Shown: piece by piece, positions 3,690 to 39,046 of the stretch | Layout of the letters: the number at the start of each line of letters is the position of its first letter | Numbering within the stretch: position 1 is the stretch's first letter | From: Amphiscolops sp. MND2022 | Lineage: Eukaryota | Assembly: GCA_964187785.1 (NCBI GenBank) | Contig: OZ076412.1 | Location: 25,606,001 to 25,670,000 of the forward strand | Reading direction: 5' to 3' | DNA length: 64,000 nt | Notes under the pieces: generated by a model | The model's input: the letters and a program-made list of their open reading frames with translations, nothing else | Databases searched by the model: none | Told to the model about the DNA's origin: nothing | Made by a program: the position numbers and the translations under genes

Positions 3690-6600
3690 TGCTCTCTGCC
3701 ACACCTGACAGTTTATCTCACGGCCCGCGCTCACACAAAAGACTATGAGGAGCTGGGGTACCGCCTTCACACACGGACAAGCCATATTACGACAGTCATG
3801 ACGGCTGATACTGGTTGTCAATCTGTCCTAGTTGAATCAAAATATTCCACAGGCTGGGTGTAAAAAATCGGACCTCTGACCCATGAAAACACAAATATCG
3901 CCCGTGATTCATCCCAATTTTATGGGCAATTATTCTACGAATGTATGGAAAGTCGGGGTCCAGCAAAATGTTAGAGACAGCACAATGATGCTACGTGACC
4001 GACGTGATAGAAGGTGCATACTTGTGTCTGGAAGGCTTTACAACGCAGAGAATCATCCCGAGCGACTTCCCGCGTATCGGATCTGCCACTCAGCAACCAA
4101 TGTCAGTCAGTTCAGCTGCAGCAAGCCCACCCGATGAGGAATGCGGCTGCTTCTGCCCAATACGCACCAAGTCGTCACCATTACCAACTGCTCTACTATT
4201 CCTTGCAACCGATGGCCACCGGGCCGCTCTCCAGAAGTGGATACTAGAAAGATACCGATCCAGCAGTTTCAACACGTGCGATTGCTAAACACTCCCTCTA
4301 ATGGAGGGTCTGCCTTTGAAACTCCAAGTCGACCCCGAGGCCAAGCGGATCGCAGTCCACAAACCATTTCCAGGCCCTCTGCACTTGCAACGGGAGGTGA
4401 AGGCGTTTATCAACAGAGATGTCAAACTCGTGTCCTGGAAGCTGTCCCAGTGGGAGAACCGCCGGTTACTGGTGTCATCGAATGGTCACGTCTCGGAAGA
4501 AAAACGGCATGCCCCGACGCACAGTGGACATGCAGGTGCTCAACAAACATGCTGTCCGTGAAACACATCACACCCAATCCCCGTTTCATCAGGCAACGTT
4601 GGTACCTTCTGGGACCAAGAAGACTATCATCAGTTCTTGGAACGGGTATCACAGTGTGCCAATCCGAGATTGCCACCTCACCGCGTTCATCAAGCCGTGG
4701 GGTCGGTACCGATACAAAACTTATCCACGGGGCTACGTTGCGTCACAAGACGGATACACCAGAATATTCGACAAGTCTGTCGAGGACTTTTCCAACAAAT
4801 CCCATTGCATCGATGACATATGCTTATGGGCAGACACTCTCAAAGAAATTTTCTTTCAAACATGTCGTTTCTAGACATTTGCGGTCGACCCGGAATTATG
4901 CAGAAACCCAAACATTTGCAATTGGCTCCGACACGATGGAATTTGCTGGATTCGTAATCACTCCGACCAATATCCAGCCCAGTGACAAACACTACTGCGC
5001 AATCTGTGACTTCCCTAGGCCACAAAACATCACTGACATCCAATTTTGGTTCGGCCTCATCAACCAAGTGTGATACTGCGATTCCCTCCGCAACGACATG
5101 GCACTTTTCCGCGAGCATCTTAAGCCGTCGTCAACGTTCTATTGGAATCATCAGCTACTACAAGATTTTGAGCAATCCAAAGCTGCTATACTGCACAAAA
5201 TAACCGAGGGGGTCCGGATATTCAACTGCAAACGCGTCTCGCCACAGATTGGTCCAAGAAAGGCATCGGTTTCGGCTCTTGCAGAAGTACTGCACATATG
5301 AGGCAACACATCACTCGTATCTGTTGCTTAACGGGATGGACAGTGTTCGCCGGTAGCAGGATCGCACACCCAGAAGAACCAATATATGCTCATTTTGAAG
5401 CGCAGCATTGGCTGTGGTTTATGGATTGGAGTCCGCTAGCCACGCTACTGGGGGTCCTCAACAACCGGCATCTCGGCGATATCAAGAATGAACGACCATT
5501 GTCACTCAAGGTAAAGACGCTGCCATACCGCTTCTCTATCATCCTTATACCCGGACAGAAACAAAAGGCGCGAAAACAAACTCGAGAAAACACACTGGTG
5601 ATGCGAACAAAATTCCCCTGGATAGCGATTTCGAGGAGTCGGTTTCCATTGCTTGTATTGAACTGCGTCTCCGCCTTCCTGAGGCCTCCATAACGTGGGA
5701 ACCCGACACATCAGCTGATCTTGAAAAAAAGCTTGCCGTTGCTGCGGCCACAAATCTCGGCGACATCCGCGCCGTTACATGGGCCGAGGTCCGAGAACTT
5801 ACCCTACGCGATGAAAATCTACAAAATCTCCGCGAAACGATCGAACCCGGTTTCCAGGGCATTACCTAACGATTAGATCTTGCCCTGGGTGTACGGGAAT
5901 TCTTCCAAGTCAAGGATGGACTCAGCACAGTGGATGGGGTGATTCGTTACAACAACAGGAATGTTATCCCATCACCACTAAGAGAAGTAATCCTAACAGC
6001 ATTGCGGCATTGCAGGCGCACTATCTTCGGACGGCGGAATTGAATTTACGGCTGAGGAGACGCAACAATTGTTGCAAAGTGGGGTGTCCATCAACGCCCC
6101 TCATCTGTTGCACATGTCCATTCAAGCGGTCGCGCCGAGCTCGCCGTCGAGACCTGCAAGCGCATGCTCATGGACAACAATGACCCGAACAACGAGATCA
6201 ACCTCGACCAGTTTCAAAGAGACATGATTCAATTCCGCAACACCCCCAGTCGCGAGACTGGTTTTTTCCCAAATGAAAGACCGGCACAAATGATCTTTGG
6301 ACGACCCATAAAAGACTTCATCCCTGTTCTGCCCGGTTCGTACAGACATCACAACACCTGGATAGAAACATCGCGGGGGCAGGGAAGAGGTAATGCGTGT
6401 TGGAAACGTCGGAAATGCTGAACGCCCCACCGAACACACGGTACAGTTATAACCCCTTACAGTTGGCGACCGAGTCTTTATCCAAAAGCAAACAAGGTAA
6501 CCATCCACTACGATGGGATCGAACCGACCTAGTGATCGAGGTGAAACAGTTCGACCAGTGCGCCGTCAAAGTTGATGGCTCGGGCAGAGTTACTCTCCGG

Positions 6601-6950
6601 AAGCTGAAATTTCTACGGAAGTTTGACAAGATCGCTGTGGACCGCATACCTGGTACTACCCGCACCATCCAATTTTTGAAAACAACCAACAACGCCGAGA
6701 ATCTGTCTCCGACGAATCAACGAACCAACCGATCCAAGACCAGGCACAGCAAAGCTGGAAACTTTGCAACCGGAAACAAAGCGTCAAGTTTTGACTGATG
6801 CACAGTATACACAACGCCTTCCCCCCAGAAATACCGGCAGTTTTAATTGAAACCCCACCCAAGTTCAACTGCACTCCAAACGAGTCCCTAAGACATGAGA
6901 ACGAGCCTTTGCTGACACATCACCTCTACAAGATCACCCAACAAGGAGTA
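3690..6950 (+). mobile_element. pol: Degenerate 5'-truncated Ty3/Gypsy pol (PR-RT-RH-partial IN)
   Basis: TADTGCQS protease (~3790), RT WCHRMV..RRTVDMQVLN..CIDD (4419-4874), RNase H remnants (5200-5560), integrase C-terminal part AVETCKRMLMDN..FRNTP..AQMIFGRPIKD (6150-6620). Confidence 0.85.
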
Positions 6951-13283: not shown

Positions 13284-13330
13284 TCACAACTTACTTCATA
13301 TAACAAAAACCAAACCGATTGCAAACTACC

Positions 13331-13897
13331 TGTACGATCTCTTTTTTTGGCTTCTTCGGATTTTTCTTTTTTTTTTATTGTAGTTCCAGCTTTTTTCTAG
13401 AAAAAGTTAGTTCTCTGTTCTTACAATGTATTCAGCTTCCCTTTTCTACGCGTTGGGTTCGGTTGATGGTGTAGAAGACTTTGTCGATCGTAGAATTTTG
13501 ATATTTTTCTTCAGAAACAGAGAAAAACGAGTTAAGTTGATGATTTTGTTCTAGATTTAAATTAGAGCAAATACAATATTCAACTGAAGTTATATTCAAC
13601 TTCTCGCAAGCAAGTCTCTCGGTTGGTGTGTCAGTAATTTTCCTTCTTGCAATCTATAATTTTGGCACTTCCTGTTTCCCGTTTGTTTGAAGGAAGTGGT
13701 GATCAATATTTATAAAATGCCGCACCAAATATGGTAAAACATGATTATTATGAGAGTTTAAATATTTGATGATTGGTAATAAATTGCTTATTTTGCTGGT
13801 CAAGTTCGATAATCTCTTGGGTGATGACCTTTCCTTGTTGGGTAAGTTCCATCAACGATGGCCTTTTTCAGGTCAATGGTAACATGGATATGTTACA
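13331..13897 (-). repeat. 3' LTR (567 bp)
   Basis: TGTACGATC..ATGTTACA; highly similar to 26267-26630. Confidence 0.95.
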
Positions 13898-14141
13898 CTA
13901 CCCAACTTCAGAAGCTTCCAGTGGGTTTGAAAAATTGACCGGTCGGTATCGTGAAGAAGCAATTTCCAGATTAGGAGTGATCGTTGTGTAGAAAGAAGGA
14001 CGAAAGATGGCGATCCACACGCAGAAGTCCAGGTCAAGGAGAAGGGAGAAAATGAAGAGTCATAGGATATACAATTTGAAAGGGATGATATACAGCTAAA
14101 CAGTCATTGTTTATGATTTTTCAATAGCAGTTGATACATGA

Positions 14142-16486
14142 TTACACATTCATTACGCTTGAATTATATAAGAAAAAGCTCTTTAAAAGATTTTTGTTAT
14201 AAATATTATTTTTCGATTTCATAAAGGGGGCAGGTAATGTATATTGAGCTGGGGCTAGCGTGTCCCTAGTTGAGCCACGTCGTCTGATAAAGATTGTGTC
14301 TGTCTCTCGTTGTTCAATGTCTGTGCTTGCGTTTGTGCCAGCGTTTAACTTGAGCATATGGTCAGAGGCATATTTTTGGCATGTTTTGCATTTATGATAG
14401 AAGAACATGAAAATGAAATGAAGTATCATTGATCCAAAAAATGAAACGATGCTCATTCCAATTGATGTTTTCCAGGTCGAATACGAACTGAGTTCATCCT
14501 GCAGGAGTGGTCGTAATGATCTCATTTTGCTCGTGATGGGTCTCGCTATTTCCATTAGTTTGTCCGTTGATTATAGTTTCGGGCTCGTAAGAAGTTTTTG
14601 CCGAAGTTCTGTCAGCATTTGAACGACTTTGTTGGAAAATATGGCATTTCGTCTACTGGTGGAACTTCGCTCAAAAGACGTTTCAGTGGGTCAGGCAAAT
14701 TAACATGAATTTTGATCGCTGGTATACTTTTACATGTTTGTAGGTCAGATCGAATTGTTATATGTGGTCCCGTGAGTTGTTTTCAACATGCTAATGTAAT
14801 TATGCAAATATTACAACCTGGGTATTTGGTCAAGCCTGTTGCCGTGTTTGAGTCTGAAGTAGTCTCATACAACGTGTAGGCTTTTGTTGCCGATGTCACT
14901 AGCCAAACTCCATAGCCAAGGTTTTCTGCTTTTTCTGTAGCCGGTAGTTCAATCACTTCGGTATCACATTTTTGAATTGATTCTGACGATCCTTTGAAGA
15001 ACAATGTTGCCAAACACGATCCATGACCGCGTTCAGTGGCAATTGAACGATGACAGATTTGATAGGTTGGTGATCCAATGCAATTCACCAAATCATATTT
15101 GCTCAAAAGAGCTGTTTCTAGATTGCTAGATTGTCTTCCGAGATAGCGAGGAACTGAGTTTCTGTTTTCCATTTCATCGCCAGTGTCAGTTCTGGTTGCG
15201 GCATTGGAATCGGTGTTGCTCTATAAACTGTAAGCGATGTTTGTTTTGACGCCAATGGTATTGATAAAGTCATTAGGAGACCTTCTTCCAATGTGATGAC
15301 ATCTGTCAGAAGTTTCGCTTCGTAGTACGCTAGAATTTCTTTTGGTGGAATGGCCAATGTTAAACGATCGTCAGCTTGACCCTGTTCGATAATGACTTCT
15401 TCTAATATCTTCAGTAGTGATTGTCGCGGCACTAGTGACAATGGTAGAAATTGTCCCAAAATTGTTGGTATCGCATTCACAATGTTCAACTGGTAGGCGT
15501 ACAATGAACTACGGTAAGCTTTAATATTTGTATGTGTCATTGTTAACAGTGCTGTCATAGTATCATACTTAAAATTCATCTGCTGTCGTGAGAATAGAAG
15601 TTGTGTAATAGATGAATGTTGTTTTGGAACACAGCAAATTGATTTTCAATTATCTTCCAGTTGTTGTCTTGTGTTTCAGCTAGTTCTTGTTGTATTTGAT
15701 GTAACTTGGAGACTTCATTCGTCAGCAGGTAGATTTTTTCGTTAGATTCGGATCGTAGTTTGTGAACATTCTCAGCGATGTTTTCGGAAATGCGGTCCAG
15801 TCGAAGTATGTTGTTTGCATTTTCCTTCGCTTTGTCTTGACATGAGCCGAAGACTCCTCTAAGTCCGCAGCACTCACTACTGCCTAGCAGAATCCCACTT
15901 CCAAAAAACCAACTGAAGCTAGAGCAGCAAATGCTAATGGCGCTGCTCTCTTTACTCGACTTTGGCTTCCGAATTGTGGTTCTTCGTTAGGATGCAATAG
16001 TATTGAAATTTCGTTACGTAAGTTCTAGAGATCGGTGGAAGCTAATTGTGATTCATTTTGCACGTGATGTAAAATCCAATTAATGTCAAAAACTGAGTCA
16101 TTTGTTGTGAAATTACTGGAGAATGTCAAGTCACAAAATATACTCGGTTCTTTCCAAAGTTGGTGCAAGGCGTGAACTGATTCATTGAGATGTTCGTGCA
16201 ATTGTATGTCCAAGTTCGGAAATGGTACCAGAAATTCAACATTTATGAACTTTTCCGCTAGTAGGATTTTTGTTTCATGATTGAAGATGATACCATTTTC
16301 CAAAAGAGCATTTGCCTCGTGATCAGGAATAATGTCTGATGCCCATTTCGATGAATTGTCAGAAAGAGACAGCGTGAGAAGCCCGGAAATGACTAAAACG
16401 CAAAGAAAGTTTGTTAAAGGTTTTGTTGTGAATGTTTTTTTAGAAGTTGTGTTGTGCCAAGAATGAATTGCCGAAATGTCACCCAC
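14142..16486 (-). pseudogene. env: env-like class I (F-type) fusion glycoprotein, frameshifted
   Basis: Hydrophobic signal-like stretch FLCVLVISGLLTLSLS, furin site RVKR (15947-15958) followed by AAPLAFAALASVG, heptad-like region, Cys-rich region, C-terminal TM SIGMSIVSFFGSMILHFIFMFFY. Confidence 0.85.
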
Positions 16487-16684
16487 AATTTACAGTGCTG
16501 TGGAAACGTCTTGTGCTTTGCCCAAGAGGGAGAGATTGTAACCTGTTCCTCGAGGCACATATTTTGTGCCACCACTACTACCATTGGGCCCAGTGGAGTA
16601 CGGGCAGATCATTCATGGGTGACGCTGTGTATTCTGACAGGCATTCTCGTGCTTTTACTGGTGGTGCGCATGATGCGACGGTAG
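16463..16684 (+). CDS. Small Cys-rich single-pass membrane protein (73 aa), antisense in the LTR element
   Basis: Cys-rich N-terminus with an NVT sequon, TM-like WVTLCILTGILVLLLVV, basic RMMRR tail. Confidence 0.4.
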   Translation: MNCRNVTHNLQCCGNVLCFAQEGEIVTCSSRHIFCATTTTIGPSGVRADHSWVTLCILTGILVLLLVVRMMRR

Positions 16685-16972: not shown

Positions 16973-17482
16973 TTGCACGTATTTGAGATAGCGATGGCAG
17001 TAAGCAAATTGAATTATCTGATTGAAAATTTCGGCAGCCGAGAAGGTCTAGAGGAACTTGGTTGGCAAAATGTGCCTGTTCTGAATTGCCCCGAAGCCAA
17101 AGATTGGAAGGAAATTATATCATGCGCCTGCAGGAAGAACTTTGGACTTTATGTAGATTCAACCGGAAAATCGTCCTGGTTTCAAAAGCCAATAGCGGTG
17201 AGAAATGCAAATGTGTTTAATTTGAATGTTGATTTTGTGGAAGCGGTCAAAAGGTGCCGCACTGAGAAAGATGTCATGAAGGTTTTCAACAAATTTACAG
17301 AAGCAGGTAAATCGAGGCTCATCAGTAGATTGGGCGATAAGGAGTGGGCGCCTCAATCAAAAGCGTGGAACATGCGTGTGACCGATCTAGCGGAATACTC
17401 AGTTCCCTCAAATCTATCCGGTCACCACAGTAGTGGAATCATAACACTCGGACGATGGCATACCGATGGGAATGTAGAGTGA
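16973..17482 (+). CDS. Hypothetical antisense accessory protein (~165 aa)
   Basis: Open 510-bp frame with globular-protein composition, between pol and env. Confidence 0.5.
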   Translation: MHVFEIAMAVSKLNYLIENFGSREGLEELGWQNVPVLNCPEAKDWKEIISCACRKNFGLYVDSTGKSSWFQKPIAVRNANVFNLNVDFVEAVKRCRTEKDVMKVFNKFTEAGKSRLISRLGDKEWAPQSKAWNMRVTDLAEYSVPSNLSGHHSSGIITLGRWHTDGNVE

Positions 17483-17512
17483 GGAGGGGATGATTCGCTC
17501 TCCTACACTCCT

Positions 17513-18034
17513 GTGGGTTTAAAAATTTTTCTCATCGCCAAATGGGGAAAGTATTCGCAACTTTTGCTGAAAAGCACCAAAACGATGGAGTGCACAGTTA
17601 ATCTGATCCTTAATGGTCCTCCTAAAGGGTGGAAAGAGAATGTTAAGATCTTTGTGTCGGCCAGTGATCTTTTTCTGGCGCAGCCAGCCTTGTGTTGCCA
17701 TTCAGTCCTTACAGTATCAGAGGGACCAGCTTTTGTCACTGGCTGGGAAGCCATGGACAGGAACGATACCAAGCGCAGTCGGCAAACACAGAATTTTTTT
17801 GCCACTGGGCTCTCGGCAAAAACACTCCGCGAGTTGCGGAAAAAAAAGAGTATGAGCCAAATCTCAGCTATCATTGAAAAGAAAGAGGAGGAGGAGGCTG
17901 CAAACAAACCGCAGGAAGAGCAGAGCGAGTCAGAGGCAGCGATGCAATTACGTTCCCTGGTGGAACGTGGACTTGACGTAGTGGCTCCCCCACAAAAAAG
18001 CGGCGTTCCCGAAAGGGGCAAAAACAACAGATGA
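17513..18034 (+). CDS. Hypothetical antisense accessory protein (up to 173 aa, charged C-terminal half)
   Basis: Open frame 30 bp after the previous ORF; LRELRKKK..EKKEEEEAA helix-like segment. Confidence 0.45.
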   Translation: MGLKIFLIAKWGKYSQLLLKSTKTMECTVNLILNGPPKGWKENVKIFVSASDLFLAQPALCCHSVLTVSEGPAFVTGWEAMDRNDTKRSRQTQNFFATGLSAKTLRELRKKKSMSQISAIIEKKEEEEAANKPQEEQSESEAAMQLRSLVERGLDVVAPPQKSGVPERGKNNR

Positions 18035-19627
18035 ATTTGCCAAATGTAAAGAAGAGTATCTTAAAGAAGAAAGGCCTGAGCATTGAATAAACCCTCTGTT
18101 TTTGGTGAGTTTGATCCCTGCGTTTATGATTTTTGTTTTGTTTTACAGAGTTGTGAGTGGACTGAACTGGATAGTGTTGTGAAATGTCATGTGTGAGCAA
18201 CTGTTTGTGTTGGTTGTAAACATTGTTCGTGTGGCCAACTGAAAAAAAAATTTTGTTTTGTTTCTTTTTTTGCATCTCGTTGGTTGCTGAAGTCCTCGGT
18301 GTCAGTATACCGAATTGTCAGGGCTCTTGCCAGGGGGGGAGGTGTTTTGTTTTAACAGTTTTGAAGAGTTGTTGACTAAATGTTTGATTGGTTGGGCGTG
18401 TAGCGTTCGACCCAAAAAAGTTAGCTCTTGAAACGAAATCGCTCGATGGCATTAGACAGTCCAGTGATGTGTACTTTGATCTGATCACGTGGATGTGTCG
18501 AGGCTAGAATTTACGTATTGGTTGAAATTATCTTGATTTGGTATTTTATCGCTCGGTCAAATATTTCTCATTGAGGCAAAAACTTTTACATCGAAAAAAG
18601 TTAGTTCTTTGGAAGAAATCTTAAAATACGGTTTTGGCGACCCGATATGGCCTACTGAGAAACCATCTGACGATTTGGCGAGGATGTATTTTTGATTGTC
18701 CGTCTTTTTGTTTTGAAAATATTGTCTTGTTTTTCATAACATGCTCGTCTTTTTTCCGTTCAAAATTTTTAAGTATATTTTTTTTGAATTTTTGATTGTG
18801 ATTGTGTCCCTGTAATTGGGGTGCTTAGTCAAGTGCAAATGCTCGTTAGGCTCTTAATAATTGATGGGTTGAGAAAGGTCCTGAACGGAATTACAAATGA
18901 AATCCATCCAAAAGTTACTTCCCATGATGTTCAATGGAGGTTTCAAAAGGTAAGTTTTGCTATAAAATATAAAGTATGCGGTGCTGTAGTTTTCTCGCTT
19001 TCAAGCTTCTGCAATCAGCTTCCAGGTTTTGGCAAGAATGATTCCGCATTTTATAGTCTAGTTGTTTTTGTGATGGTATTTGGTGAAAAACAGCGTGAAG
19101 GGAACCCACGAAGGAAAAAAGTTAGTTCTCATCCGAAAGGCGCTCGGTGGCAGAAAGGAAGCCAGCAATGACTTGAATATAAGCGTCTCCAAGATTTCTC
19201 GAGCGCAGTTTTTGCAACCGTTCTTTGTGAAAATGTTTTTTTTCCACAAAATTATGGATTCTCGTGCTATTTGTGTTGGAGCCTTGAATCGTGCGCTCGA
19301 GGCTTTGTAGATCCAGAAACGTTTGTGTTGTTCAAGAGGCGTATGTTCAAAGGAAGTTTGTTGTCAAACACTTGTCACAACCGAAAAAGGTTGTTTTCTC
19401 ATTTTCAGTTTTTCAGTATGCAAAAGATTTTAACTGTAGCTGCAATGCCTTTCCTGCGTTTGCTCGATAGCGTTTTAATCGTTTGCGTTTTCTGATTGTC
19501 GATCATAGTTGTTTGATCTAAGAAAATAATTGGACTTATTTGCCTCACGTTGAAAGGTACTGTTAGTTCTTGTGGTATTTTGTGATTTGGATCTCGTTAC
19601 CGGTTGAGAATGTGTGTTCTGTTGCAA

Positions 19628-22600
19628 TCATTCTACCGCTTCTAAAGTTTTTCTATTAGCTTCCAATTGTGAAGACAAAAGTGCTCTTCGAGCAGCTCTA
19701 GCTTGATCACCTAGAGTTCGCGCCATTTTGTCATCATCAGAGAACCAAGACACCGTGTGTGATGTCGGTGTTGCCGTTGGTGACGGAACGCGAGGATGAA
19801 TTCGCGCATGTAGTCTAGGTCGCTGTGTTTCTGATTGCACATCAGGTTGCTCAAAGAGACGTTCCAAATTAAAGTCTGTTGTGTTGTCTCTTGGAGCGTT
19901 TGGTTCTCTTCTAGTGAGCGCCAATGCTGGTTGTACTATTGGAAATAGTAGCGTGGTTGTCACTTCATTTTGTGGTTCACTGTCCTGCAGGTTGAGTGTT
20001 TCAACGTTTGTGTGATGTTCATTCAACAGCTGTGGCAATTCATTGTCGAATAGACCTGGTTAACTCCGAAATTGACTTAGGGATGGATCAGGTTTGAATT
20101 CGGAAGGATGAAGTCTCGGCAAATCTTCAACGGTATATTGTGGTTTTATTGGTCTAATATGGAGTCTTTGAACGCATTGAGTGAATGGCGGTCCTACCTT
20201 TCGAATGATATAATTCGATTTCGTGAGAACCTGCTCGACTCGGTAGAGAGGCAGCCATGACTGCACTGTTTTAGACATAGTGCTAGACTGATCAGTGAGC
20301 AACGGGTTCAAAAGCAAGCAGTATTCGTGTTTTTTCAACGGTTGAGCTTCCGCTTTTTGATCATAGTAGTTTCGGTAACGATGATATGAGTTCAAAATGC
20401 GAGATTTTGTTTCGCAAAACTGCTGAACAAGAGTGTCTTGCAAGTCATTCACAAAGTCGCTCGATGGTTGAGACGAGTTTACATGTTTACTGAATCTCGA
20501 ATCAATGGGTTTGGAGGGATCTCGGCCATGATTTATTGAACTTGGCGTGGTACCGATTGAGACATGGTAAGATGTGTTGTGTACAAACGTTGCAATATCC
20601 ACAAACTTATGCCAGTTAGACCATGCACTGGTTGAGTTAATCTTCAAAATCCGTTTGAATGCACTATGTGCTCTCTCAACTACACCAACAACTTGTGCGT
20701 GTTTCAAAGATGCATGATTTAATTTATTTTCTAGCATGTTTGTCAACTCGTGCATTAGCTTGGATGTGGAACCTGTACCTAAATCTGCTAGAATAGTTTT
20801 AGGTATATAACTGTGTTTCAGAAATATGGAAACTAGCGCTTTTGCTACATTCTCTGCGCTGATGCTAGACAGCGGCACCGCGAACAGGTATTTCGAAAAG
20901 ACGTCGATTCCTGTTAGTGCGTATTTGTATACCGGTGCAATGAATTGACCAACGAGATCAATCTGCATCAAATCTCCGGGGAAGGTATGATCAGATGCTA
21001 ACGATTCTAGAGGTGGTCGCAACCTTTTCTGCTGAATGTTTTTCGTTTGCAAACAAGTTGAGCAGTTTTTCACATAGTTGAGCAAATATTCCGTGAAGCT
21101 TGGAAAATAGAAACGTTTTCGAAATTCGTATACTATTTTATTGATGCCCAGATGATCACTAGTTGGGGAATTGTTTAGTCTGTATAAAATTTCGGATCGA
21201 AGATGCTTTGGAACACAGTATTGTAAATGCGAGACAACTCCAACGTCGTTGAAAAACTTTCTGTAGAAGATACCATTTTCGAGTACCAGGCGACTGCGGT
21301 GTTTTGCATACTTCTTGATTTCTTGGGTTTCGTAGGTTATGTCAATGTCCAAGTTTTCTTCTAGCCATTTACGAACTTTGCGCAGTGCAGGGTCTTTCAA
21401 TTGTTCTGCTTTCAGGTTTAAGGTTGTGGCATGTGCAGAGATCTCAAAATCATTTAGTGGATCAGGTTCGTAGAGTGCGTTGTTTTCTGCTCTTGTTAAA
21501 CTTGTGTATTCCCAGTCGCACATGCTTTCTTTTTCACGAATAAAATTCGTAAGCTCGGGGAATTTTTCTTCTATTCCTGAAATTTTGTTCAAAATTTTCT
21601 CATATTCCTCATGGGTAGAGTTTTTATCCAAGGTTGTGTTGTTGAATTGAAGCTCGATTATTGAGATATCTGGTGTTTTGGCTGTCATCGAAACTTTTAT
21701 CTCTCAGATTGGTAATGAATCCGTTAGTCCGAGCTGTAGCGTTGCTCCTGGTTCTGTTTCCATGCGTGAAAGAAAGTCTGCGGCTGCATTTTCAATTGTG
21801 ATTCATTAAAGGTTTTTGAACCGAAAGAAACTGGTGCGTACTTTCTCGTTTTTCATTCTGCCGTCTTGTCAATGTAGTCCTCTATCATGAGTACAAAACC
21901 ACTACAATGGTAGCTAACATCGCAAAGGATAACGTACTGTTGATTTGGTTATGCCCAACGCAATGTTGTTGTCGTTGCTTTTAAAAGATCAGTTTTAATT
22001 TGCTTAAAATTTTCGATATGGTCATCTTGAACTCTGAAATCGACATCCTTCGCATAAATTTGTAAAAGGGTAGCAGCTTCTCGTTTAACTTTGGTATGAA
22101 ATTTCGAAAAAATTGTGTGAAGCTGATGAGTCTTTTGACTTGTTTCACCGTTTGTGGTATTTTGACTTTGTCTAGAAACTTTTCTATTTTCTTCGTTTCG
22201 GGAGTAATTCCCTCAGATGTGATCGTATTGCCTAAGAAAGAACTTTGCGACATTCCAAACTGACATTTTTCTGGTGAAAGCTTGAGTCCGGAACTTCGGA
22301 TACTAGCGAAAATTTTGGTCAGGTTTTCTTTGATTTCCGCAAAGTTTTCTGCTCCACTCCCACTGTCGTCCATGAATTGGGTGCAGAGGTTAGCCGCAAG
22401 ACATTGATCCAAGTATTTTCGTACAAAGGCACTAAATCCCGTAACGGATTTACTCAAACCTTGTGCCAAAACTTTGTATGCGTATGTCCTGGATACGAAA
22501 TTGAATGCAAGCAATTGTACCGAGAGCGAGTCTGCCATTTGAACGCAGTGGTACGCTTGCGAACAATCTAATTTTGTGAACAATTTCTTTCCCGCAAAAT

Positions 22601-24400
22601 GGTTAACAGCGTCCGTCATATTGGAAATAGGAAAATTGTGGTTGGCATATTCATGTCGCAGCAAATGATTTATTTTTCTGAGGTCATGCAAAATTCGCAA
22701 TCTTCCCGACGGCTTTCGCTGAGCGAAAATTGGGCTACTGTACTTCGAATTTGTTAGTGTTGTTATATTGACGTAGTATTGCAAAAGAGCCAATTCAACC
22801 ATCATTTCGTCTCGGAGGTGTATTGGCGTTGGCGGACTTTGCATATAAACTGCATTCGAGTGTTTGGGCGTCAATTTAATTTTCATTTCGGTGTTATAAC
22901 CAACGTCGAACCTGTGTTTGGCAAAAGTATCTTCAAATTCGATGAGAAGGTGTTCGAGCTCGCTGATTTCATCTGATGTCAAAACCGAATTCTTCCAATC
23001 GAACTTAGATAGAAATTCGTTCCGATCCGCTTCATTTTGTTTAGGGTTTTTTTGTTCGAGTTGCTGGAAATGGTGAAGTTGTTCATAAATTTTACGCGGT
23101 TTTGGTGTCAATTGTTCAGGATTATCACACGTTTCAGGTGTGGGAAACCATAAATTTTTGTAGTCAGGTTTCGGTTTTTGTGGTTGAAGTACTTTACCTT
23201 TGTCTTCACATTGGACTAGTTGGTTTATTTCCTGAAATAGCTCACCTTTCATAGCTTCATCAAGTGTCAAAGTTTCTGCCGGTATAGGTATCAACGATTA
23301 AGCTTCATCGAGAGTTAAAATCTGGAACTTTGCGACTGGTTGATTTTTTGAGACAGTGACTACATAATCTGTTAAATTCAAAGCCAGAATTTGTAATTCA
23401 TTATTACTTGCTATTGTTGTTAGACAAGATGACAAGCAAAGATCATGTTTCCGTTCAAACTGTACATCAGGTAAAATCATTCCCGTCATTCCTTCGAATT
23501 TTTTATCGTTTCGAGAAAATTTCAAATTTAAAACTTCTTGAGAATTAGGCTTGATCGTGACTTTTTGAGTTGTTTCAGCAACAATTTTCGTTTTGGAGTG
23601 AATTTTCCGCCTGGTTCCAGCTTTTTTTATTTCGTTCAGTTATAAAGTTATATCAGGAAACTTGAGTAACTTTTCACCTGGAAACATTCCTACTGGATAT
23701 TTTGAAAAAAAAAGAGTTCCCAAAATAACACTATTCATTGTTGGGAGAATCATGAAAGTTTCTTCAAATTCGCTGTCATGAATAAAAAATTTCAAAACGA
23801 TTTCGCCGAGTACTGGTAATGATTTGCCAGAGGCCATCCGAACTGTTTTATATTTCGCATTTTTGACCAATGTTTTCATTACGTCCACATCCGTCATCAG
23901 CTCTGTATAAAGAGACTCTGGGATCGCACTAGAGCACGCACCTGTATCTATCAACGAGCGTCGCCGAAGTTTTGAGCTAAACTTCAAGGGTACATCAAGT
24001 AAGGGGTACATCACCTTCTAACGGAATTACTGCATCCAAAAGATTTCTAGAATCTTCTGAATCAAAAGTGTCTTGCAGTTCATGAACAATTTCGTTAAGT
24101 TGCGATAATGGGATGTTTTGTTTCACTTTTTTCTTCGTAAATTGTCTACATTCTTCAGCTAGATCTTTCGAAATTTTTGCTTTCAAATTTTTATCGTATT
24201 GACCTTCTTCGAATTGTTGGTCCACATGCTTTAAAGCACCCTGTAAGGCTAACTCTTTTGTTTTCAATAGATGTCGCAGGGTATCATTTTTATTTAATTT
24301 TTTGGATTTTATATTCAAGTTTTCTAGATCTTTTTCTAAAGAACGTTTATCTGCTAAGTATGGTGATGAGGATGATTTTGGGAAAGACCTGTTTTTCTAG
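19628..24400 (-). pseudogene. pol: pol (PR, RT, partly deleted RNase H, integrase), frameshifted
   Basis: LIDTGACSS protease; RT RKPSGRLRILHDLRKIN, LDCSQAYH, QFMDD; CDVS RNase H; integrase H..CSTC, QIDLVG, ADLG, VERAH. Confidence 0.95.
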
Positions 24401-24410
24401 TGTGGAGGAT

Positions 24411-25618
24411 TTAGTTTTTTTGTTCTCTTGAGAACGGGATTTTTGCACCACGTTGCGATTTTGGGCTTGCTGCTACACAGGCTCGGGCCATATGATCAGG
24501 ACCACCGCATCTATGACATATTATTTTAGTGTAGTGCATGTATTGTGATCCACCTGTGGCATTTAACGGTTCCGGATTTTCAATCTGGCCGTGACTCTGA
24601 TGGAAGTTTTGCGCTTGGTAATATCCTTGCGCCAAACTAGCATCATTATTTTGGGGTGCGTGAAACCGTTGTCCATACCGTGGTCGATAGGATTGGTTTT
24701 GATAGGACAAGTACGCCCGGTTTTGATAATATCTTTGCCTCGTTGGTAATTCGAGCCGAATTGATTGCCTCGATAGTGATTCTGTTGATATCTTGGCAAA
24801 TAATTTTGTGCTCGAGGATAACCGCTTGAATTAGTCTGAATGGCATTCAAAGACAGACTTTCATCCACTTTTTTAATGAAATTGTTCATTTTGTCCTCCA
24901 TTGCACTATGAGTTTCAGTAATTTTAGCCAAAACATTCAAGTAATCTTCACTTTGTACGTTACTGACTTCGCTGAATGCGTTTGCGTTCCAATCATCTAC
25001 TTCGCAAATCTGATTCAAATGAAGCGTACGACGTGCTAAGGTGCAAAGGTCGCCTACGGTTCTTTCCTCTGGTTGTTCTGGTAATTTTCGTCAAATAAAA
25101 TTTGGCATTGCTTTCAAGAATAGCCGTTTTACATGTTGCTCTCGTTGCAGTTGTGAAAAACTGAGCCTTTCAGTGTTAGCAGCAGTTTCAGCTGCAACTC
25201 TATCTCTCTCACCATCTGTTTGATCTCTAGCAGCCTCTACTGGAAGGGCTTCAGCGTCTGGATAAGCGGAGTTTGCTAAATTTTGTAATTTCACTAAGAA
25301 TGCTTCAGGATTTTCTGTTTTGTGATTGTATTTCATGTTTTCAATTTGAATAATGTACAATTCTTTATACGTTGGATTACAAAAATGCGTTTTCAAAGCG
25401 TTTAGACATCTATTTAAATTTCCGCGTGTGTCAGCGTCATGAGTATGAAAATATTGCAAAGCGTTGTCTTTTAGGTGAAGTTTTAAGTAGTCAACTTGAT
25501 TTGCAGCGTCTACATTTGCTACTTGAATGATGCTGCGGAGTTGTCATTCAAAATCGCGCCAATTTTCTGATTCACCGCCGAACTGTTTTAAACTGATTGT
25601 AGTGTTCGCTGCGGCCAT
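24411..25618 (-). pseudogene. gag: gag with terminal zinc knuckle, disrupted
   Basis: MAAANTT start; FGGESENWRDFE, LHLKDNALQYF; CHRCGGPDHMARAC knuckle. Confidence 0.9.
24414..24420 (-). promoter_or_regulatory. Candidate -1 ribosomal frameshift heptamer A_AAA_AAC
   Basis: In-phase X XXY YYZ heptamer immediately before the gag stop TAA. Confidence 0.55.
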
Positions 25619-26250: not shown

Positions 26251-26266
26251 GGCACCCTTGTCACCA
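26251..26266 (-). promoter_or_regulatory. Primer binding site TGGTGAC.. (tRNA-Trp-like start)
   Basis: TGG-initiated sequence abutting the 5' LTR. Confidence 0.7.
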
Positions 26267-26630
26267 TGTACGATCTCTTGTTTTTGGCTTCTTCGGATTT
26301 TTCTATTTTTTTAAAATGTAGTTCCATTTCAATTTCTCGCAAGCAAGTCTCTCGGTTGGTGTGTCGATCTTTTTCCTTCTTGCAATCTATAATTTTGGCA
26401 CTTCCTGTTTCCCGTTTGTTTGAAGGAAGTGGTGATCAATATTTATAAAATGCCGCACCAAATATGGTAAAACATGATTATTATGAGAGTTTAAATATTT
26501 GATGATTGGTAATAAATTGCTTATTTTGCTGGTCAAGTTCGATAATCTCTTGGGTGACGAACTTTCCTTGTTGGGTAAATTCCATGAACGATGGCCTTTT
26601 TCAGGTGAATGGTAACATGGATATGTTACA
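26267..26630 (-). repeat. 5' LTR (364 bp, ~200 bp shorter than the 3' LTR)
   Basis: Same termini as 13331-13897; lacks the segment ~13390-13595. Confidence 0.95.
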
Positions 26631-27076
26631 CTACCGAAACAATTTTCTTCACGAGAGTCACAAAATTAGCGAATTCCCTTTAAGCAAATTTTGCTTTAAA
26701 CTTTGAGTTGAGCAAATATGAATTCAAAAACGAACTAAAGAAAGTTTTTTGGAGCAATCTTTAATTTTGTTGATAGAAATACTTGTGCTCGTTTCCTGAA
26801 ATGCTATTGTTAAATGTGATATTTGGTGCATCTATTTTTTTCTCTACCAGATATCATGGATCTTCGTCATCAATTAAGTGCCATGTGTATCGTCATAACG
26901 GGGGAGAAGACACACACCCGTGGTCTGCAACGAAAGTAGGGAACCCCATACCAGCCACTATACCAGTAGCCCAGTAACAAAAAAAACAACCAACAAACTA
27001 CTCAAACGAGCCACTATGCAGTCGACCGGTGGAGTTTTTTTAAAGATGCTATGAGATAAAGGTCAAAAAAATTAGG

Positions 27077-28137: not shown

Positions 28138-28199
28138 ATTTGAGCCTTTGTCGGTTTGAAGCGGCCCGGGGCGAATAACCTGCTTGCTTTGAATCAAAA

Positions 28200-29383
28200 A
28201 TGACTGGCACACGCAGTAGAAATCAATCCACCTCGGACGAAAAATGTCCGCAGTGCAAAAGTAAGGTAGCTGAAAAAGAAAAGAACTCAATTCTTTGCAA
28301 CGGTTGTTTTGAATGGTGGCACGGGACATGTGGAGGAATAGAAGTGAAAGATTTGTCAATATTGGCGAAGTACTCGGCTGTGCACTGGTACTGTCCCAAA
28401 TGTGAAAACGACACTTTGCAAAAACAAGGTATGACCATCATGAAGTCCGTAAAAACGTTAAATCAATGGTATAATTATGAAAGTGAAATTCGCAAACAGG
28501 AAACTGATCTATTGATGTCAATTAAAACTGATATCGAAATCATCAAGCAAAAAAACCCCTCAGGAATAACCTATGCAGAGAAAGCTAAAATCGCCCGAAA
28601 ACCTTCGCCCTCTACGAGACAAATTCCTCGAAACAAAGAGAAAGACTTGAGTACCATATTGATTGTCAGTGGCAATCAAAAGTATCGAGATAGCATTGAA
28701 ATTAAAAGGGCATTTTCAAAAATTTTTTCTATGAAAAAATTGATTGTAGCATTCAATACTGCTCGGGGAAACATTCACTTAGAATTCTTGAACTCTCAAG
28801 AGTCTGACGAGGTGTTCTCCAACTGGAAAGCTGATTATCTTGGAAAACCGGTATACGAAAAGCTACCGCTAGAGGTGAGCAGAGAAACGCTGTCATAAAA
28901 GGTGTTCCGAAAGACATAGACGAGGTTCATATTACTGAAATTCTAAAGAAGAAGTATCCTGGGATCTATGTGAAAAGATTCGTAAAAGCGGATGGAACAA
29001 TTCTGCAGATAGTGAAACTGACCTTCCAGTCAGAGCTTCAATACAAGAATGCACTATCTGAGGGACTCTTTTTGGCTTCCATTTACTACCAGCCATATGC
29101 GTTTGTTCAGAGAGGCATAAGAATCATTCGATGTTACAACTGCCAAAAATTCGGTCACCTTAGCGGAAACTGCCAATCCAAAACAGCCTGTAAACTTTGC
29201 AGTGAACATCACAAAATTGAAGACTGTCCGAATAAAGAATTAGAAAGCAAATGTATGAATTGCAAAGGGACTCACGATGCGGATTCACTTGTGTGCCCAA
29301 CTTACATTAAACAAAAACAAGTGGTTTATGACGCTCGGGGGCTAACTGATGAAAATCATGATGGATGGCATGATGGCTGCTGA
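28200..29383 (+). pseudogene. LINE ORF1: PHD finger plus three CCHC-type knuckles (one frameshift)
   Basis: CPQC..CNGC..WWHGTC..WYCPKC; CYNCQKFGHLSGNC, CKLCSEHHKIEDC, CMNCKGTHDADSLVC. Confidence 0.85.
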
Positions 29384-31790
29384 AAGGAGAATATCATTTT
29401 TACAGATCAACATTTGCGGCTTGAGTAATCACAGTAAAATTGCAATTGATGCATATCTTGAAAAACATAAACCAGATGTGGTTTTTTTGAATGAAACCAA
29501 ACAATAATTTCCTGATAATGCCTTCACCAATTATACAACTCTCGGTAGTACTCCAAAGAAATTGACAAGCGGGGTTGCGTTGTTGTTTCGTAACGATGTG
29601 GCGTATGCTCAAATAGAGATATTAGAGACCAAAAACAGTGACAATATTGTGACTGCAGCGGCAGCTAATGTCCGCGGCCTAAAATTACTAACTACGACTG
29701 CTTATGTAAAACTTGATGACAAAGGTGAACAAATAGAACTCATAAAAAGACTTGAAGCCTGTAAAGTCTACGCAGATACAAATCACATGGAAGGTGTTCT
29801 TTACTTTGGCGACTGCAACGCCAAACACTTATACTGGGGTGATCAGACGTGCAATGCACTTGGAAATGAGTTTATCAGCCTCGTACCAACTTATACTATT
29901 TTGAACGATGGCCAACCTACTTTCCTCTCAATCAACGGCCAAAGTGTAATAGATCTTTGCATTTGCTATGGAAACTTCATTAACCAATACAAATGCTCGC
30001 TTACAACCGATGAAGATACGGAACTGTTCACTGGAGCACCCTCCAGGGGCCACCTGCCTGTGCTAGTTTCTCTTGTCGAGTCAAAAAGTGGTTATTTCAA
30101 AGAGAAGCCGTGGATTGAGAAAGCAAGGTGGGATGACTGGCGCGCACATCTAGAAACTGAAATGCTCGACTGGACAACTTCAGATAATGCTCTGGAATTG
30201 TGGGAATTTTTCAAGAACTCTTTAAAAGAGGCCACACTACTTTTCATTCCTTTCAAAAACGTTACGCAACATAGTAAACCATTTTGGTGCACCGAGTTAA
30301 CTATAGCCAGTAAAGAGCTCAGGCAGCTGCGTCGGAACTTCCGATACAAGTCCAACCATGCAAATTTAGAAAAACTAGCAGAAGCGAAAGAATTATTCAA
30401 ACAACTACTCAGTGAAAAGGCGTCTGCCTGGATGAAAGACTACTTGAAGGCACTGGGACACAAGCGAGGCAATGAAGTTTGGGTATCGTACAAGAAACTG
30501 TTCGCTGGAAGCAGTTCCCAAGTGGATCTCATCAAGAATAAACACGGGAAACTGCTGCTCTCAAAAAAAGATATTGCTCAAGAATTCCAAGAGACGTTCT
30601 CCAAAGGAAAACATCTGGAAACTCTCAACTTCGACGAGTCAATGTCAAGGACAGTCTCAGGTTATCTGGACTCGTTTGATGATGCTTCCGAGCAGGCTTC
30701 GGAAAATTTTTAATGAACCTTTCACAATTGAAGAACTAAACGAAGCAATGAAACAATCTTCTGATACAAACTCCTTCGACCCTGACGGGTTCCACGTCAA
30801 AATGATCAAAAACTTGGGAGTCAATGCGAAAACTCTTCTCTTGGAGATTTTTATTACATGTTGGGAACATGCTGTATGGCCCTGGTCTTTATCACGAATT
30901 GTGTTTATCAGGAAGCCTAACAAAGACAGGTATGACGACTGTTCCAGCTATCGACCGCTATCTATTTCTAGTCATTTTAGAAAACTTTTTGAGCGTATGC
31001 TGTGCAACAGATTAAACTATTTCACGGGAACCGAGAAGATTCTGGCGGACGAACAAGAAGGTTTCAGAAGTAAAAGAAACACAGTCAGATCTCTGTACAG
31101 GCTACATCTTAATCTAGAATGTTCTAAATTAATGAAAACACCGACCGCTCTACTCAACATTGACCTCGAAAAGGCCTTTGACATCGTGTGGATAGATGGC
31201 CTACTTCACAAACTCAGACATTACAAAATAAACGGTAAAATGTTCTGCATTTTACGAATTTTTTTGAAGAACCGAGAAGCATTCATTGAGTGATCTGACT
31301 TCCGTTCATCTGTGTTCAAAATAGACAATGGTGTCCCTCAGGGAAGTGTCTTGTCACCACTTTTGTTTGTAATATTTTTGAACGATTTTCTGAGTGAGGA
31401 ACCGTGTCACTACAAGTTCGCTGACGACAGTGCTATTTTAATTCTAGGCTGCAATGAAAATGATATCTCCCAAAAACTCGAACAGTCTTGCAGGGGGATA
31501 GAACAGTGGTGCCGCAAATGGAGAATGGGAGTGAATGGCTCCAAGACAGAATTGATAGTTTTCAATGTGGAAAGAAACAACATAACTGCGCCGAGCCTGA
31601 ACAATGAAGCGTGCGCTATCACAAAAGCTACAAAATCTCTCGGTCTCCTGGTTGATGATAACCTGTGTTACAAAGACCACGCCGAAAAAACCTGTAACAA
31701 AGCTAAACGCAGCTGGGATAATGCTTCTAGAATTTTGAGATGCAAACGGAGCTTGTCAATTCCAACGTTAATTTTCCTCTATTTATATCC
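29370..31790 (+). pseudogene. LINE ORF2 (APE endonuclease and RT), frameshifted
   Basis: INICGL, LNETK, GDCNAKH, SVIDL, QEGFR, DLEKAFD, GVPQGSVLSP, FADD. C-terminal CICGK..YHYFFCCP at ~40430-40480. Confidence 0.9.
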
Positions 31791-32011
31791 TAGAATTATG
31801 AGAATCCTATAAATATTATTTAGGTAGTTTTCCCCACCTAAGATGGGATCATATACGGTGTATGCACGCTCGCCCTCACCGTCGCAAAGACCAGCTCCCA
31901 CTACGATCGCCTCGCGATCTCCGTTCCCGCTAGGTCTTTGCTCCTGTTCGACCTCGCTTAGCAAGATGGGAACATAAGCGGCCCCAATGGGCCGCGGGGC
32001 ATTAGAGGAAA

Positions 32012-33575: not shown

Positions 33576-35714
33576 TTATGATCTACAAAAAGTACTTAGG
33601 CGTTTCAGGTAGAAACTGCATGAGTGATCAATGTTGAAACAATTTGCAGTTTTATCAGCAAGGAACCGATTTATACAAGACTTGAAAATATCAAGAGGCA
33701 TATCAAAAGACACAATTTTCAAATTTATCAGTTCATTTGCTGAACGCGCCGCTCTAATATAGAAATTGTCATTTGTGGAAAATTTGTTGCATTTTGGAAT
33801 GTAGAACAGGCCATTCGATGACGAGCGTGTGCATAGGTTGGATCTCATGATATTGTTGTCTAGGTCCACAGAATTGTTACACAACTTCCATAACAGAATA
33901 ACGTCGTTTTTCACAATTTGGTAGCATATTGGAAGGATGTCAAGATGTATCAGTGCTGAAACAAGAGAAGAAGTTTTATTGATCCAACGTATTACTTTGT
34001 ATTGAAAATTTTCAAGTTGACGAAGCTGGGTTCTAGTTGGACACCATACAGGTGAGCCATACAGTGAAATAGAAAGAATAAGGGATGAATACAAAAACTT
34101 TTTCCTTTTAGAAGATGTAGAAAATGGAATGTTTCTCTTTAGAAAAAAGAATACTCTTTTTGATATTAGGAGCTTAGAATCAACATGTCGTTTCCATGAT
34201 AAGTGGTTAGAGATAATGAAACCAAGGTCATCCATTTCTTCGACAAAGGGAAGAGGATTGCAACCAAACATCAATTGGTCGGATTTGTTTTTGCGACTAA
34301 AATCGATAACTTTACACTTTTTAGGGTGAAAGTCAAGATTGTTCAATTCGCTCCATTCAGAAAGACTATTAATGTCGGCTTGAACTGATTGTGCATTGAA
34401 GTTATTGAAGACCTTAAGATCATCGGCAAAGAGTCGGAATTGGCTGTCTTGTATGCCATCACCAATATCATTTATTAAACATAAAAATAGTAACGGACCC
34501 AACACACTGCCCTGGGGCACACCTGATGTAACAGGTAGGGCCGACGAAATAGATTGATTTATGCGCACACTCTGGAAGCGCCCAAATAGATAAGAGTTGA
34601 ATAATTCTAGAAAATTGCGGTCGAAATAAAATTTTTCAAGTTTTGACAACAACAAATGGTGAGAAACAGAATCAAAGGCCTTTGTGACATGAAAATAAAC
34701 AGCAACGGCATAAGAATCACAATCACAAGAAGCATAAACACTGTCCAGGTAGCTGATTATTTGAGAAACAGTGCTTCTAGATTTCATGAAACCATGTTGT
34801 TCACGTTTAATCATTCGACTAATTCTAGGGTAAATAAAATTAAACAATAATCTCTCAAGGACAAGCGACAGCTTAGGCAGAATACTAATTGGTCTGTAGT
34901 TGGTAATGTCCGAATGATTTCCAAGCTTATGTAGAGGAGTGACAAGTGAAGTTTTCCATTGAGATAGCCAGGTACGGTTCCGTATAATCCAATTAAATAA
35001 ATCAAAAGCAAGAGGGGCGAGGATATCAGAACAGCTACTTAGAACAAATGATGGAATATTGTCAGCACCACATGCACTGGAATCAGGGCATTTTCTCAAC
35101 AGATCTTCAACATCGGAAACAGACAGTTGGAAGTCATCTAGTTTAATCGAGGGGTTATCAAAGGTCTCATGAAACTGATGATCTTCTTTCTCAATGAATA
35201 CAGACGCAAAATAAGAATTGAACTCTGAAGATTTTTCATGATCGCTATTCAGAGCTTTGGTTTTGTGAAACATTACTGAGGGAAGTGTCTTGCCAAATCC
35301 AAGGTTGCGTAACAACTTGAAACACAGCCTAGAAGATGAAAGATCAAACTGATTTACGAACAATTGTTTGTCTAGTTCGATAGAATCAGAAATAGCTGTT
35401 GTAATTTCTTTGAGTTTGGTAGCTTGCAGGAAAGAACTGCACTTTGACAATTTGCGAAGAGTTGTGTCTCTGGTATTTAGAAGATGAATAGTGTGAGAAG
35501 AATAGTATAACGGCAGTGATAGTCGTTTAGCACGTTTAGTTGCAATGGAGCTGTTTAGCGATGAAGATAGAATCAAATACCACTCTTCGGGATATTGACT
35601 GTTTGGGAAATTGTCGAAACTGATCAGATTGAATAAAGGTTGTAAACAACCATTGAATGAAATCACATTGAAGGATGATCTGGAAAAAACATTCTTGTAG
35701 GAGTTTGAAGACAC
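33576..35714 (-). CDS. LINE ORF2 RT and C-terminus (712-aa open portion)
   Basis: NYRPISIL, EQHGF, AFDSVSH, GVPQGSVLGP, FADD. Confidence 0.9.
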   Translation of the reverse strand: MSSNSYKNVFSRSSFNVISFNGCLQPLFNLISFDNFPNSQYPEEWYLILSSSLNSSIATKRAKRLSLPLYYSSHTIHLLNTRDTTLRKLSKCSSFLQATKLKEITTAISDSIELDKQLFVNQFDLSSSRLCFKLLRNLGFGKTLPSVMFHKTKALNSDHEKSSEFNSYFASVFIEKEDHQFHETFDNPSIKLDDFQLSVSDVEDLLRKCPDSSACGADNIPSFVLSSCSDILAPLAFDLFNWIIRNRTWLSQWKTSLVTPLHKLGNHSDITNYRPISILPKLSLVLERLLFNFIYPRISRMIKREQHGFMKSRSTVSQIISYLDSVYASCDCDSYAVAVYFHVTKAFDSVSHHLLLSKLEKFYFDRNFLELFNSYLFGRFQSVRINQSISSALPVTSGVPQGSVLGPLLFLCLINDIGDGIQDSQFRLFADDLKVFNNFNAQSVQADINSLSEWSELNNLDFHPKKCKVIDFSRKNKSDQLMFGCNPLPFVEEMDDLGFIISNHLSWKRHVDSKLLISKRVFFFLKRNIPFSTSSKRKKFLYSSLILSISLYGSPVWCPTRTQLRQLENFQYKVIRWINKTSSLVSALIHLDILPICYQIVKNDVILLWKLCNNSVDLDNNIMRSNLCTRSSSNGLFYIPKCNKFSTNDNFYIRAARSANELINLKIVSFDMPLDIFKSCINRFLADKTANCFNIDHSCSFYLKRLSTFCRS

Positions 35715-36240
35715 AGAGGAAGCGAAATCAAAGTATATAGGTTAGTGATCAGAAAATAGAACAAGGCTAATTGACAGGGCTAAACATTGACTATCACAGA
35801 ACACAAGGTCAAGATTGTTTTGATTTTTATGTGTAGGCTCATGAACCATCTGAACTAGGTCTTTTTCAAGAATAAAGTCAAGGAAATAACGTTCCATTGA
35901 AGAAGTAGAAGAATAGGATTTCCAGTCGACATTTGGGAAGTTGAAATCACCAAGAATGTAGACATTATGGGTACCAGTGTAGCCGAATTGCAGCAAAATA
36001 TCAACAAATTTTTTGTAATAGGCTTCCATACATCGGACTAATTCTGAAATAACCACAGAATATTTAGAAGAGTAGTAGGGAGGATTGTATACCAATATAA
36101 AGAACGAGGGAACATCACTGAGAATTACACAAGCAATGGCGAAACCGAATTCCTCAATAGTAATATCAATATACAGTAAGGGAGAATCATTGACGATTAC
36201 AAGTAGAAACAGCTTTAGTTGTCAATGTTAAACTGTCACA

Positions 36241-38898: not shown

Positions 38899-38998
38899 TT
38901 CTGTTTTGTACGAATAAGTTTTTCGAATATACAGTAAGGGAGAATCATTGACGATTACAAGTAGAAACAGCTTTAGTTGTCAATGTTAAACTGTCACA

Positions 38999-39046
38999 AT
39001 ATGTTTACAAACGTTTTCGACTATGAAAAGTCATCATCAGGCATAA
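38999..39046 (-). ncRNA. Minimal type I hammerhead ribozyme-like motif (second copy)
   Basis: Identical motif in the pseudo-LTR. Confidence 0.7.

Follow-up and report, generated by a model that had tools for sequence, protein, structure and literature searches.

Ty3/gypsy elements with an F-type envelope gene have been described from cnidarians, ctenophores, tunicates, rotifers and other animals (Chary and Hayashi, PMC13524379). In the sections of that survey compared here, these "ancient errantiviruses" resemble the family reported below in their gag-pol-env organisation, in an F-type env with furin site and fusion peptide, in their multiple copies and in their occurrence in animals other than insects. 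The Tor elements of Oikopleura (PMC4402516) are, as far as the compared passages go, likewise env-bearing Ty3/gypsy elements of a non-insect animal. Xenacoelomorpha lie outside the taxon list of the survey, and in the portions compared acoel names are absent from its main text and supplements (PMC13524379). The terms "antisense", "JmjC" and "accessory" are absent from the compared main text of the same paper, and no antisense enzyme cassette is described in the compared passages on Tor (PMC4402516).

Against this background, the env gene of the locus studied here represents a known kind of element in a host phylum that is new for it. An initial annotation of the same DNA had implied greater novelty, which was overstated, as F-type env genes are already on record from Ty3/gypsy elements outside insects (PMC13524379, in the sections compared). 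What is new is an antisense JmjC cassette beside env, not the F-type env itself. With an acoel as host, Xenacoelomorpha would be one more phylum in which F-type env elements occur, a point relevant to the pre-Cambrian origin that has been proposed for env.

The locus is a Ty3/gypsy provirus of 13.3 kb on the minus strand (26630-13331) of a 64-kb stretch of DNA, hereafter the window, with a 5-bp target-site duplication (TSD) on each side. Read from its 5' to its 3' end, it comprises the following features:

26631-26635, minus strand: target-site duplication GGTAG, 5' side
26267-26630, minus strand: 5' LTR with TG...CA ends, lacking 205 bp internally in comparison with the 3' LTR
26251-26266, minus strand: PBS-like stretch starting with TGG, directly after the LTR and also present in four sister copies
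24411-25543, minus strand: gag in several frames, with a zinc knuckle near the C-terminus (Pfam zf-CCHC, E 9e-4)
23640-24017, minus strand: aspartyl protease (Pfam E 0.002, below cut-off)
23298-23639, minus strand: possible degenerate dUTPase-like segment in the PR-RT interval (E 0.062, a weak lead)
21787-23297, minus strand: reverse transcriptase and RNase H, the latter broken and partly deleted
19628-21703, minus strand: integrase with C-terminal extension, its frame interrupted by a stop
16994-18034, plus strand: antisense gene of JmjC type (Fe/2OG dioxygenase), encoding a basic C-terminal tail and defunct in this copy
16463-16684, plus strand: small antisense membrane protein with four invariant Cys, one TM and a short basic tail, open in this copy and head-to-head with env
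14142-16489, minus strand: env pseudogene of a predicted F-type class I fusogen
13898-13909, minus strand: PPT-like stretch preceding the 3' LTR
13331-13897, minus strand: 3' LTR with TG...CA ends
13326-13330, minus strand: target-site duplication GGTAG, 3' side

The LTR ends, TSD, PBS, PPT and the order PR-RT-RNase H-IN identify the element as a Ty3/gypsy LTR retrotransposon (Metaviridae). The paired LTRs share 348 of 362 aligned bases, an extent beyond their 311-nt ungapped match. Pfam recognises zf-CCHC, aspartyl protease, RVT_1, Integrase_H2C2 and rve in the provirus, and the domain order gag-PR-RT-RNase H-IN is that of Ty3/gypsy elements. The top PDB match of the RT is 4ol8 (E 2.7e-17), which we take to be the Ty3 RT, and the RT also matches the Ty3 Gag-Pol structure 7q5b (E 2.3e-16). 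ARAGORN detected no tRNA in the 64-kb window. The integrase/Pol of the window copy has no macrodomain match; a TARG1-like macrodomain (Pfam Macro E 6.6e-6) occurs at the Pol C-terminus in L029:3-950 and in many of the loci L076-L115, and in L046 a macrodomain sits between RT and IN.

The initial annotation had placed env downstream of pol within paired LTRs, and the upstream gag-PR-RT-IN domains found by Pfam, the LTRs and the TSD GGTAG agree with this position. Env does not, however, stand directly after pol: an interval of about 3.1 kb separates the two and contains the antisense cassette, which had been missed. Gag, pol and env are all broken here, and the window provirus is a dead copy of a large env-bearing Ty3/gypsy family.

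The remainder of the window contains other retroelements. Positions 28179-31812 hold an element with a PHD-containing ORF1 and an RT, which we presume to be non-LTR; we further take 33576-35741 to be a second non-LTR RT, 36396-39615 to be a Penelope-like element, in which there is a 657-bp exact repeat, and 4138-6800 to be a decayed LTR pol. A 2.4-kb tandem duplication with 99.8% identity (41827-46600) is either recent or an assembly artefact. Possible host-gene exons at 58069-58449 and 59416-59712 (plus strand), presumably WD40/DCAF4-like, have no Pfam match.

The minus strand contains all sequence features of env that had initially been read from the window: a hydrophobic, signal-like segment at about 16408-16361, the motif RVKR (15958-15947) with a hydrophobic run resembling a fusion peptide directly after it, an extended heptad or helical region, and a single C-terminal TM at 14456-14400. 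The layout of such a gene, with its position after pol, signal, furin site, fusion peptide and TM, is complete. Frame changes near 15900, 15600, 15140 and 14620 and in-frame stops make the window copy a pseudogene. Because no Met lies ahead of the signal stretch in the window, L002 or L009, env is predicted to need an upstream exon. A genome search with one env piece returned 698 candidates, of which 150 were scored and all 150 matched. Forty loci were picked from the match list for diversity, ignoring their cargo, a sample biased to the best-scoring relatives, and an env frame of at least 700 aa is present in 35 of them. The potential infectivity suggested earlier is plausible for the family only; the window copy itself is dead.

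Structure prediction points to the nature of this protein. AlphaFold2 yielded a model of the naturally open copy L002 with pLDDT 76.7 when given 57 relatives (58 sequences), and no usable model from a single env sequence (pLDDT 34). In Foldseek against the PDB the top match is post-fusion RSV F (E 1.6e-8), and all matches listed are paramyxo- or pneumovirus F proteins (RSV, NDV, Hendra, Nipah, hPIV3). Against BFVD, the best-scoring models belong to an abalone herpesvirus protein, a myriapod virus glycoprotein and baculovirus F (E between 2e-20 and 5e-17; baculovirus F E 2.9e-17), and VIA superposes the model on Nipah F with Z 8.4 and rmsd 4.8 over 286 residues. The cleavage position reads RX[KR]R in 46 of the 58 sequences and RXXR or dibasic in 10 more, and 12 Cys are nearly invariant throughout the alignment. 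The modelled fold thus supports an F-type class I fusogen, as in paramyxo-, pneumo- and baculoviruses, which agrees with the F-like fusion protein of the initial annotation. A lack of structural likeness to class I fusogens, which would have refuted that annotation, is not what the model shows. Sequence comparison is less telling: Pfam Baculo_F matches weakly in 4 of 58 sequences (best E 0.001), none of the five window env pieces has a Pfam match, an env sequence search of the PDB gave nothing useful, and a cluster look-up of ten relatives returned no names. A resemblance of the env profile to haemagglutinin HA2 (E 0.012 or worse) was rejected in favour of the fold result.

The identity of the host can be approached from its own genes. 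In mitochondrial COX1, AGR encodes Ser, AAA Lys and TGA Trp (code 5), which, set beside established codes, counts against cnidarians, ctenophores, tunicates, echinoderms and rhabditophoran flatworms. Searches for homeodomains, which intron-split Hox genes could escape, recovered three Hox genes, an anterior one on scaffold C5, a central one on C4 and a posterior one on C8; we presume these classes from their motifs. According to the passages compared in PMC5054442, a set of three Hox genes without linkage is characteristic of acoels. The host is likely an acoel and very unlikely an insect, so that code 5 and the three Hox genes on three scaffolds uphold the non-insect animal host proposed at first. 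LTR elements make up about half of acoel genomes (10.1101/2022.08.27.505549, as far as compared).

The new feature is the antisense ORF between pol and env. We regard it as a JmjC-type Fe/2OG dioxygenase gene; the Fe/2OG residues are intact in its relatives and not in the window copy, where an in-frame stop (17480-17482) interrupts the ORF at 16994-18034 (plus strand) and the first iron ligand is absent. In a 96%-identical copy the ORF is open over 354 aa from stop to stop. A genome search gave 272 candidates, 150 of them scored, with matches in at least 95 places, and every one of 20 loci fetched around such matches holds the ORF (15 opposite a Gypsy env, three in BEL/Pao elements, two in another context). 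The H-x-E...H iron triad and a Lys predicted to bind 2OG are invariant in 21/21 aligned ORFs, and the corresponding 2OG-binding Thr is found in 19/21. The top ESM Atlas row is a JmjC cluster (0.96, 182/256 features). Pfam JmjC matches two of 21 members of the window's type, with a best E of 0.021 that is below cut-off; the profile of this type aligns with C. elegans KDM7A at E 0.74 with residues in register, and no JmjC structure was recovered by three other profiles.

Two further JmjC types occupy the same slot in other env families. Pfam JmjC is passed in one of these types, with E-values of 3.6e-7 and 6.2e-7. The joint profile of these types has its best matches in KDM7A/PHF8 (E 0.004-0.005, 132 profile positions), followed by JMJD6 (E 0.007, 30 positions only). 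Profile-profile comparison (hhalign) links the window type to the other slot types with a probability of 96% (E 2e-9), whereas its match to the canonical JmjC proteins of this genome is weak (probability <8%). The slot proteins are intronless and stand-alone, 280-380 aa long, with 9-22 K/R in the last 60 aa, and Pfam finds no PHD, CXXC or other reader or DNA-binding domain in the 21 ORFs. Assignment to the KDM2/KDM7 subfamily, and with it the substrate, is tentative. A faint likeness of the C-terminal helix to histone H4 (E 0.6-1.9) was taken as chance. The idea that the ORF is the shadow of a sense gene was likewise rejected, as no long conserved sense ORF exists at the site.

The JmjC gene shares the slot with other genes. 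A small antisense membrane protein lies head-to-head with env in 37 of the 40 sampled loci, the other three being weak against the profile, and all 25 sequences that were aligned retain its four Cys. The remaining cargo of the 40 loci consists of an intact-type JmjC in five, a degenerate JmjC-like ORF in one, a multi-exon gene in 33 and only the last exon of that gene in one; JmjC and the multi-exon gene occur together in none (0/40). The multi-exon gene (L080-L115) is antisense and spliced, and one of its exons has 150 matches in the genome. Its start appears H2C2-like (Atlas 0.82, a lead only), and invariant Cys and His residues in OTU-like motifs are placed in separate exons. No Pfam, PDB or integrase-core match was obtained for it, and comparison with Pfam-positive OTUs gave short in-register matches (E 2e-3 and 2e-4 within a set of six sequences), so that it is possibly an OTU-like gene. 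Elsewhere in the genome, OTU ORFs without introns (325-347 aa) are also present in multiple copies and are probably carried by transposons (L178-L180). The window contains two further antisense frames at 18788-19495 (plus strand), possibly by chance; copy L012 has a 242-aa frame there.

Substitution patterns indicate that the JmjC gene is under purifying selection. Among 16 JmjC pairs with dS of 0.05-2.0, all five with dS <0.5 have dN/dS of 0.20-0.40, and the 11 near-saturated pairs give unreliable values of 0.26-0.99. The constraint is weaker than that on env in three of four comparable pairs (env 0.05-0.13; one pair 0.63).

Comparison of closely related copies provides insight into the movement of the cassette. 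Five copies are 93-95% identical to the window in env, with homology ending at window position 16343-16363. In two of these the gag leader is 95-96%, the IN tail 83-85% and the JmjC 39-44% identical to the window. As the flanks are about 95% and the JmjC only about 40% identical, the IN tail and the cassette have been exchanged. The window-type JmjC is likewise found antisense in BEL/Pao elements with 243-bp LTRs, where it adjoins the 3' LTR, and the BEL sequences nest twice inside the Gypsy JmjC tree (support 100/99 and 92/94). The env tree is too unresolved within clades for formal co-phylogeny; pairwise identities correlate, with a rho of 0.80 from pairs that are not independent. JmjC genes also lie inside both LTRs of a Gypsy-env family (LTRs at least 3.7 kb) and of BEL families (repeats 1.3-1.6 kb). 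The former is a second, distant env-Gypsy family (L045/L046/L037, G000:C2 ~11.85-11.87 Mb), in which the LTRs of at least 3.7 kb are 99.9% identical, each contains a JmjC gene, and a 326-aa sense ORF follows env. Elsewhere, a JmjC ORF occurs in two 3.6-kb inverted repeats that are 98.7% identical and separated by about 14 kb (L048/L049, G000:C2:23195000-23219000), and an intron-containing KDM2/7-type JmjC family has dozens of near-identical matches (L062-L075).

We propose, with a probability of about 0.5, that env mediates spread from cell to cell while the antisense JmjC protein removes a repressive histone mark and so keeps the element active. The F-type env, once cleaved by furin as predicted, would allow particles to fuse into neighbouring cells. 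Transcription of the cassette would start from a promoter of its own at the start of env, possibly a bidirectional one, and its JmjC product may enter the nucleus through the basic tail. By analogy with KDM7/PHF8 it could then act as a lysine demethylase and remove a silencing mark, for example H3K9me2 or H3K27me2, and loss of this mark would sustain transcription to the benefit of the element. An internal promoter upstream of env is described for some Oikopleura Tor elements in the passages compared (PMC4402516). If the proposal is true, a family of animal endogenous-retrovirus-like elements encodes its own anti-silencing enzyme, traded between Gypsy and BEL/Pao like a viral accessory gene. 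It would make transposon counter-defence directly testable in animals and point to the marks that acoels use against transposons.

The enzyme might instead serve counter-defence as a hydroxylase or demethylase of a non-histone target, similar to JMJD6 or JMJD4 and acting on RNA itself or on a protein of RNA binding, translation, the PIWI pathway or innate defence, rather than as a chromatin eraser. JMJD6, a hydroxylase, comes next to KDM7 in the profile search (E 0.007), JMJD4/Cupin_8 clusters appear in the lower Atlas rows (0.92), the slot proteins are devoid of PHD, CXXC or zinc finger, and a Gypsy element of orchids carries an active AlkB m6A RNA demethylase (PMC9289625, in the passages compared). 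We nevertheless regard a non-histone target as possible but rather doubtful, because the KDM7A/PHF8 match is both the best and the longest (132 positions against 30 for JMJD6), Thr and Lys are placed as in the KDM7 alignment, and basic tails with 9-22 K/R in the last 60 aa suggest nuclear import.

Considerably less probable is a passenger role, in which the cassette, nested or captured, would be the remnant of another transposon and bring no benefit to its carrier. JmjC genes do occur in other mobile contexts of this genome, such as the L048/L049 inverted repeats and the multicopy KDM2/7-type family, and the spliced alternative resembles Ginger1 transposases in its H2C2, OTU and introns (PMC2836005, as far as compared). 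A passenger would hardly explain, however, why position and orientation are fixed across families whose JmjC sequences are 25-45% identical, why the catalytic residues are invariant at dN/dS of 0.20-0.40, why JmjC genes lie inside both LTRs of young elements (LTR identity 98-99.9%), and why JmjC and the spliced gene exclude each other in 40/40 loci. The strictly antisense orientation could also suggest host control, through antisense piRNA or dsRNA triggers or through domesticated regulators that limit the elements, and plant Retand elements have antisense ORFs of possibly regulatory role (PMC11963269, in the parts compared). Protein-level selection and an active site kept intact across hundreds of mobile copies, and not at single host loci, render this explanation equally improbable.

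Histone-mark removal by the JmjC protein may be part of a wider pattern. It is conceivable, though we put this forward only tentatively, that acoel LTR elements from two superfamilies have in common an exchangeable antisense slot for a "chromatin eraser", either a histone demethylase of JmjC type or a deubiquitinase of OTU type. In env families, a single bidirectional promoter would drive this gene together with env and a small membrane protein accessory to fusion. Such a slot would mean that endogenous retroviruses encode their own histone-mark erasers, and would help to explain why LTR elements constitute about half of acoel genomes.

Among cellular enzymes, KDM7A, PHF8 and KDM2 share with the slot JmjC the HxD/E...H triad and Thr and Lys in register, and supply the best PDB matches of its relatives. 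The slot proteins, as predicted enzymes, differ in being stand-alone without PHD or CXXC, very divergent (E 0.004 at best), intronless and mobile. Transposons with TET/JBP enzymes are reportedly present in fungi (PMC12730594). The literature searched, with subscription journals and Repbase Reports outside its scope, contains no JmjC-bearing LTR element, its nearest cases being the AlkB-bearing Gypsy of orchids, ORF3 sharing in bdelloids and the Retand antisense ORFs; supplements of the compared papers other than PMC13524379 could list further domains. The following comparisons refer to the passages compared in each paper. Ginger1 is similar to the spliced slot gene in its intron-bearing H2C2 and OTU regions; it has no JmjC, and the spliced gene is without an integrase-core match (PMC2836005). 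Plant Retand elements have antisense ORFs between pol and the 3' LTR, likewise without JmjC (PMC11963269). The layout of the four-Cys protein recalls insect sORF2/FAST-like proteins, with their small size, TM, short ectodomain and basic tail and no JmjC; sORF2 stands in for env, whereas the four-Cys protein accompanies it (PMC11952523). The bdelloid LTR elements with ORF3 parallel the acoel elements in exchanging extra ORFs among unrelated retroelements, in a paramyxovirus-like env and, tentatively, in a dUTPase in pol, and differ in their cargo, a GDSL esterase or DEDDy nuclease, "JmjC" being absent from the text (PMC5408684). The AlkB-bearing Gypsy elements of orchids parallel the JmjC elements in carrying an extra ORF for an Fe/2OG demethylase, a predicted one in the JmjC elements, with a proposed role in counter-defence; their enzyme acts on RNA and is a recent acquisition of one plant lineage, whereas the JmjC gene is antisense, old and common to Gypsy and BEL/Pao elements (PMC9289625).
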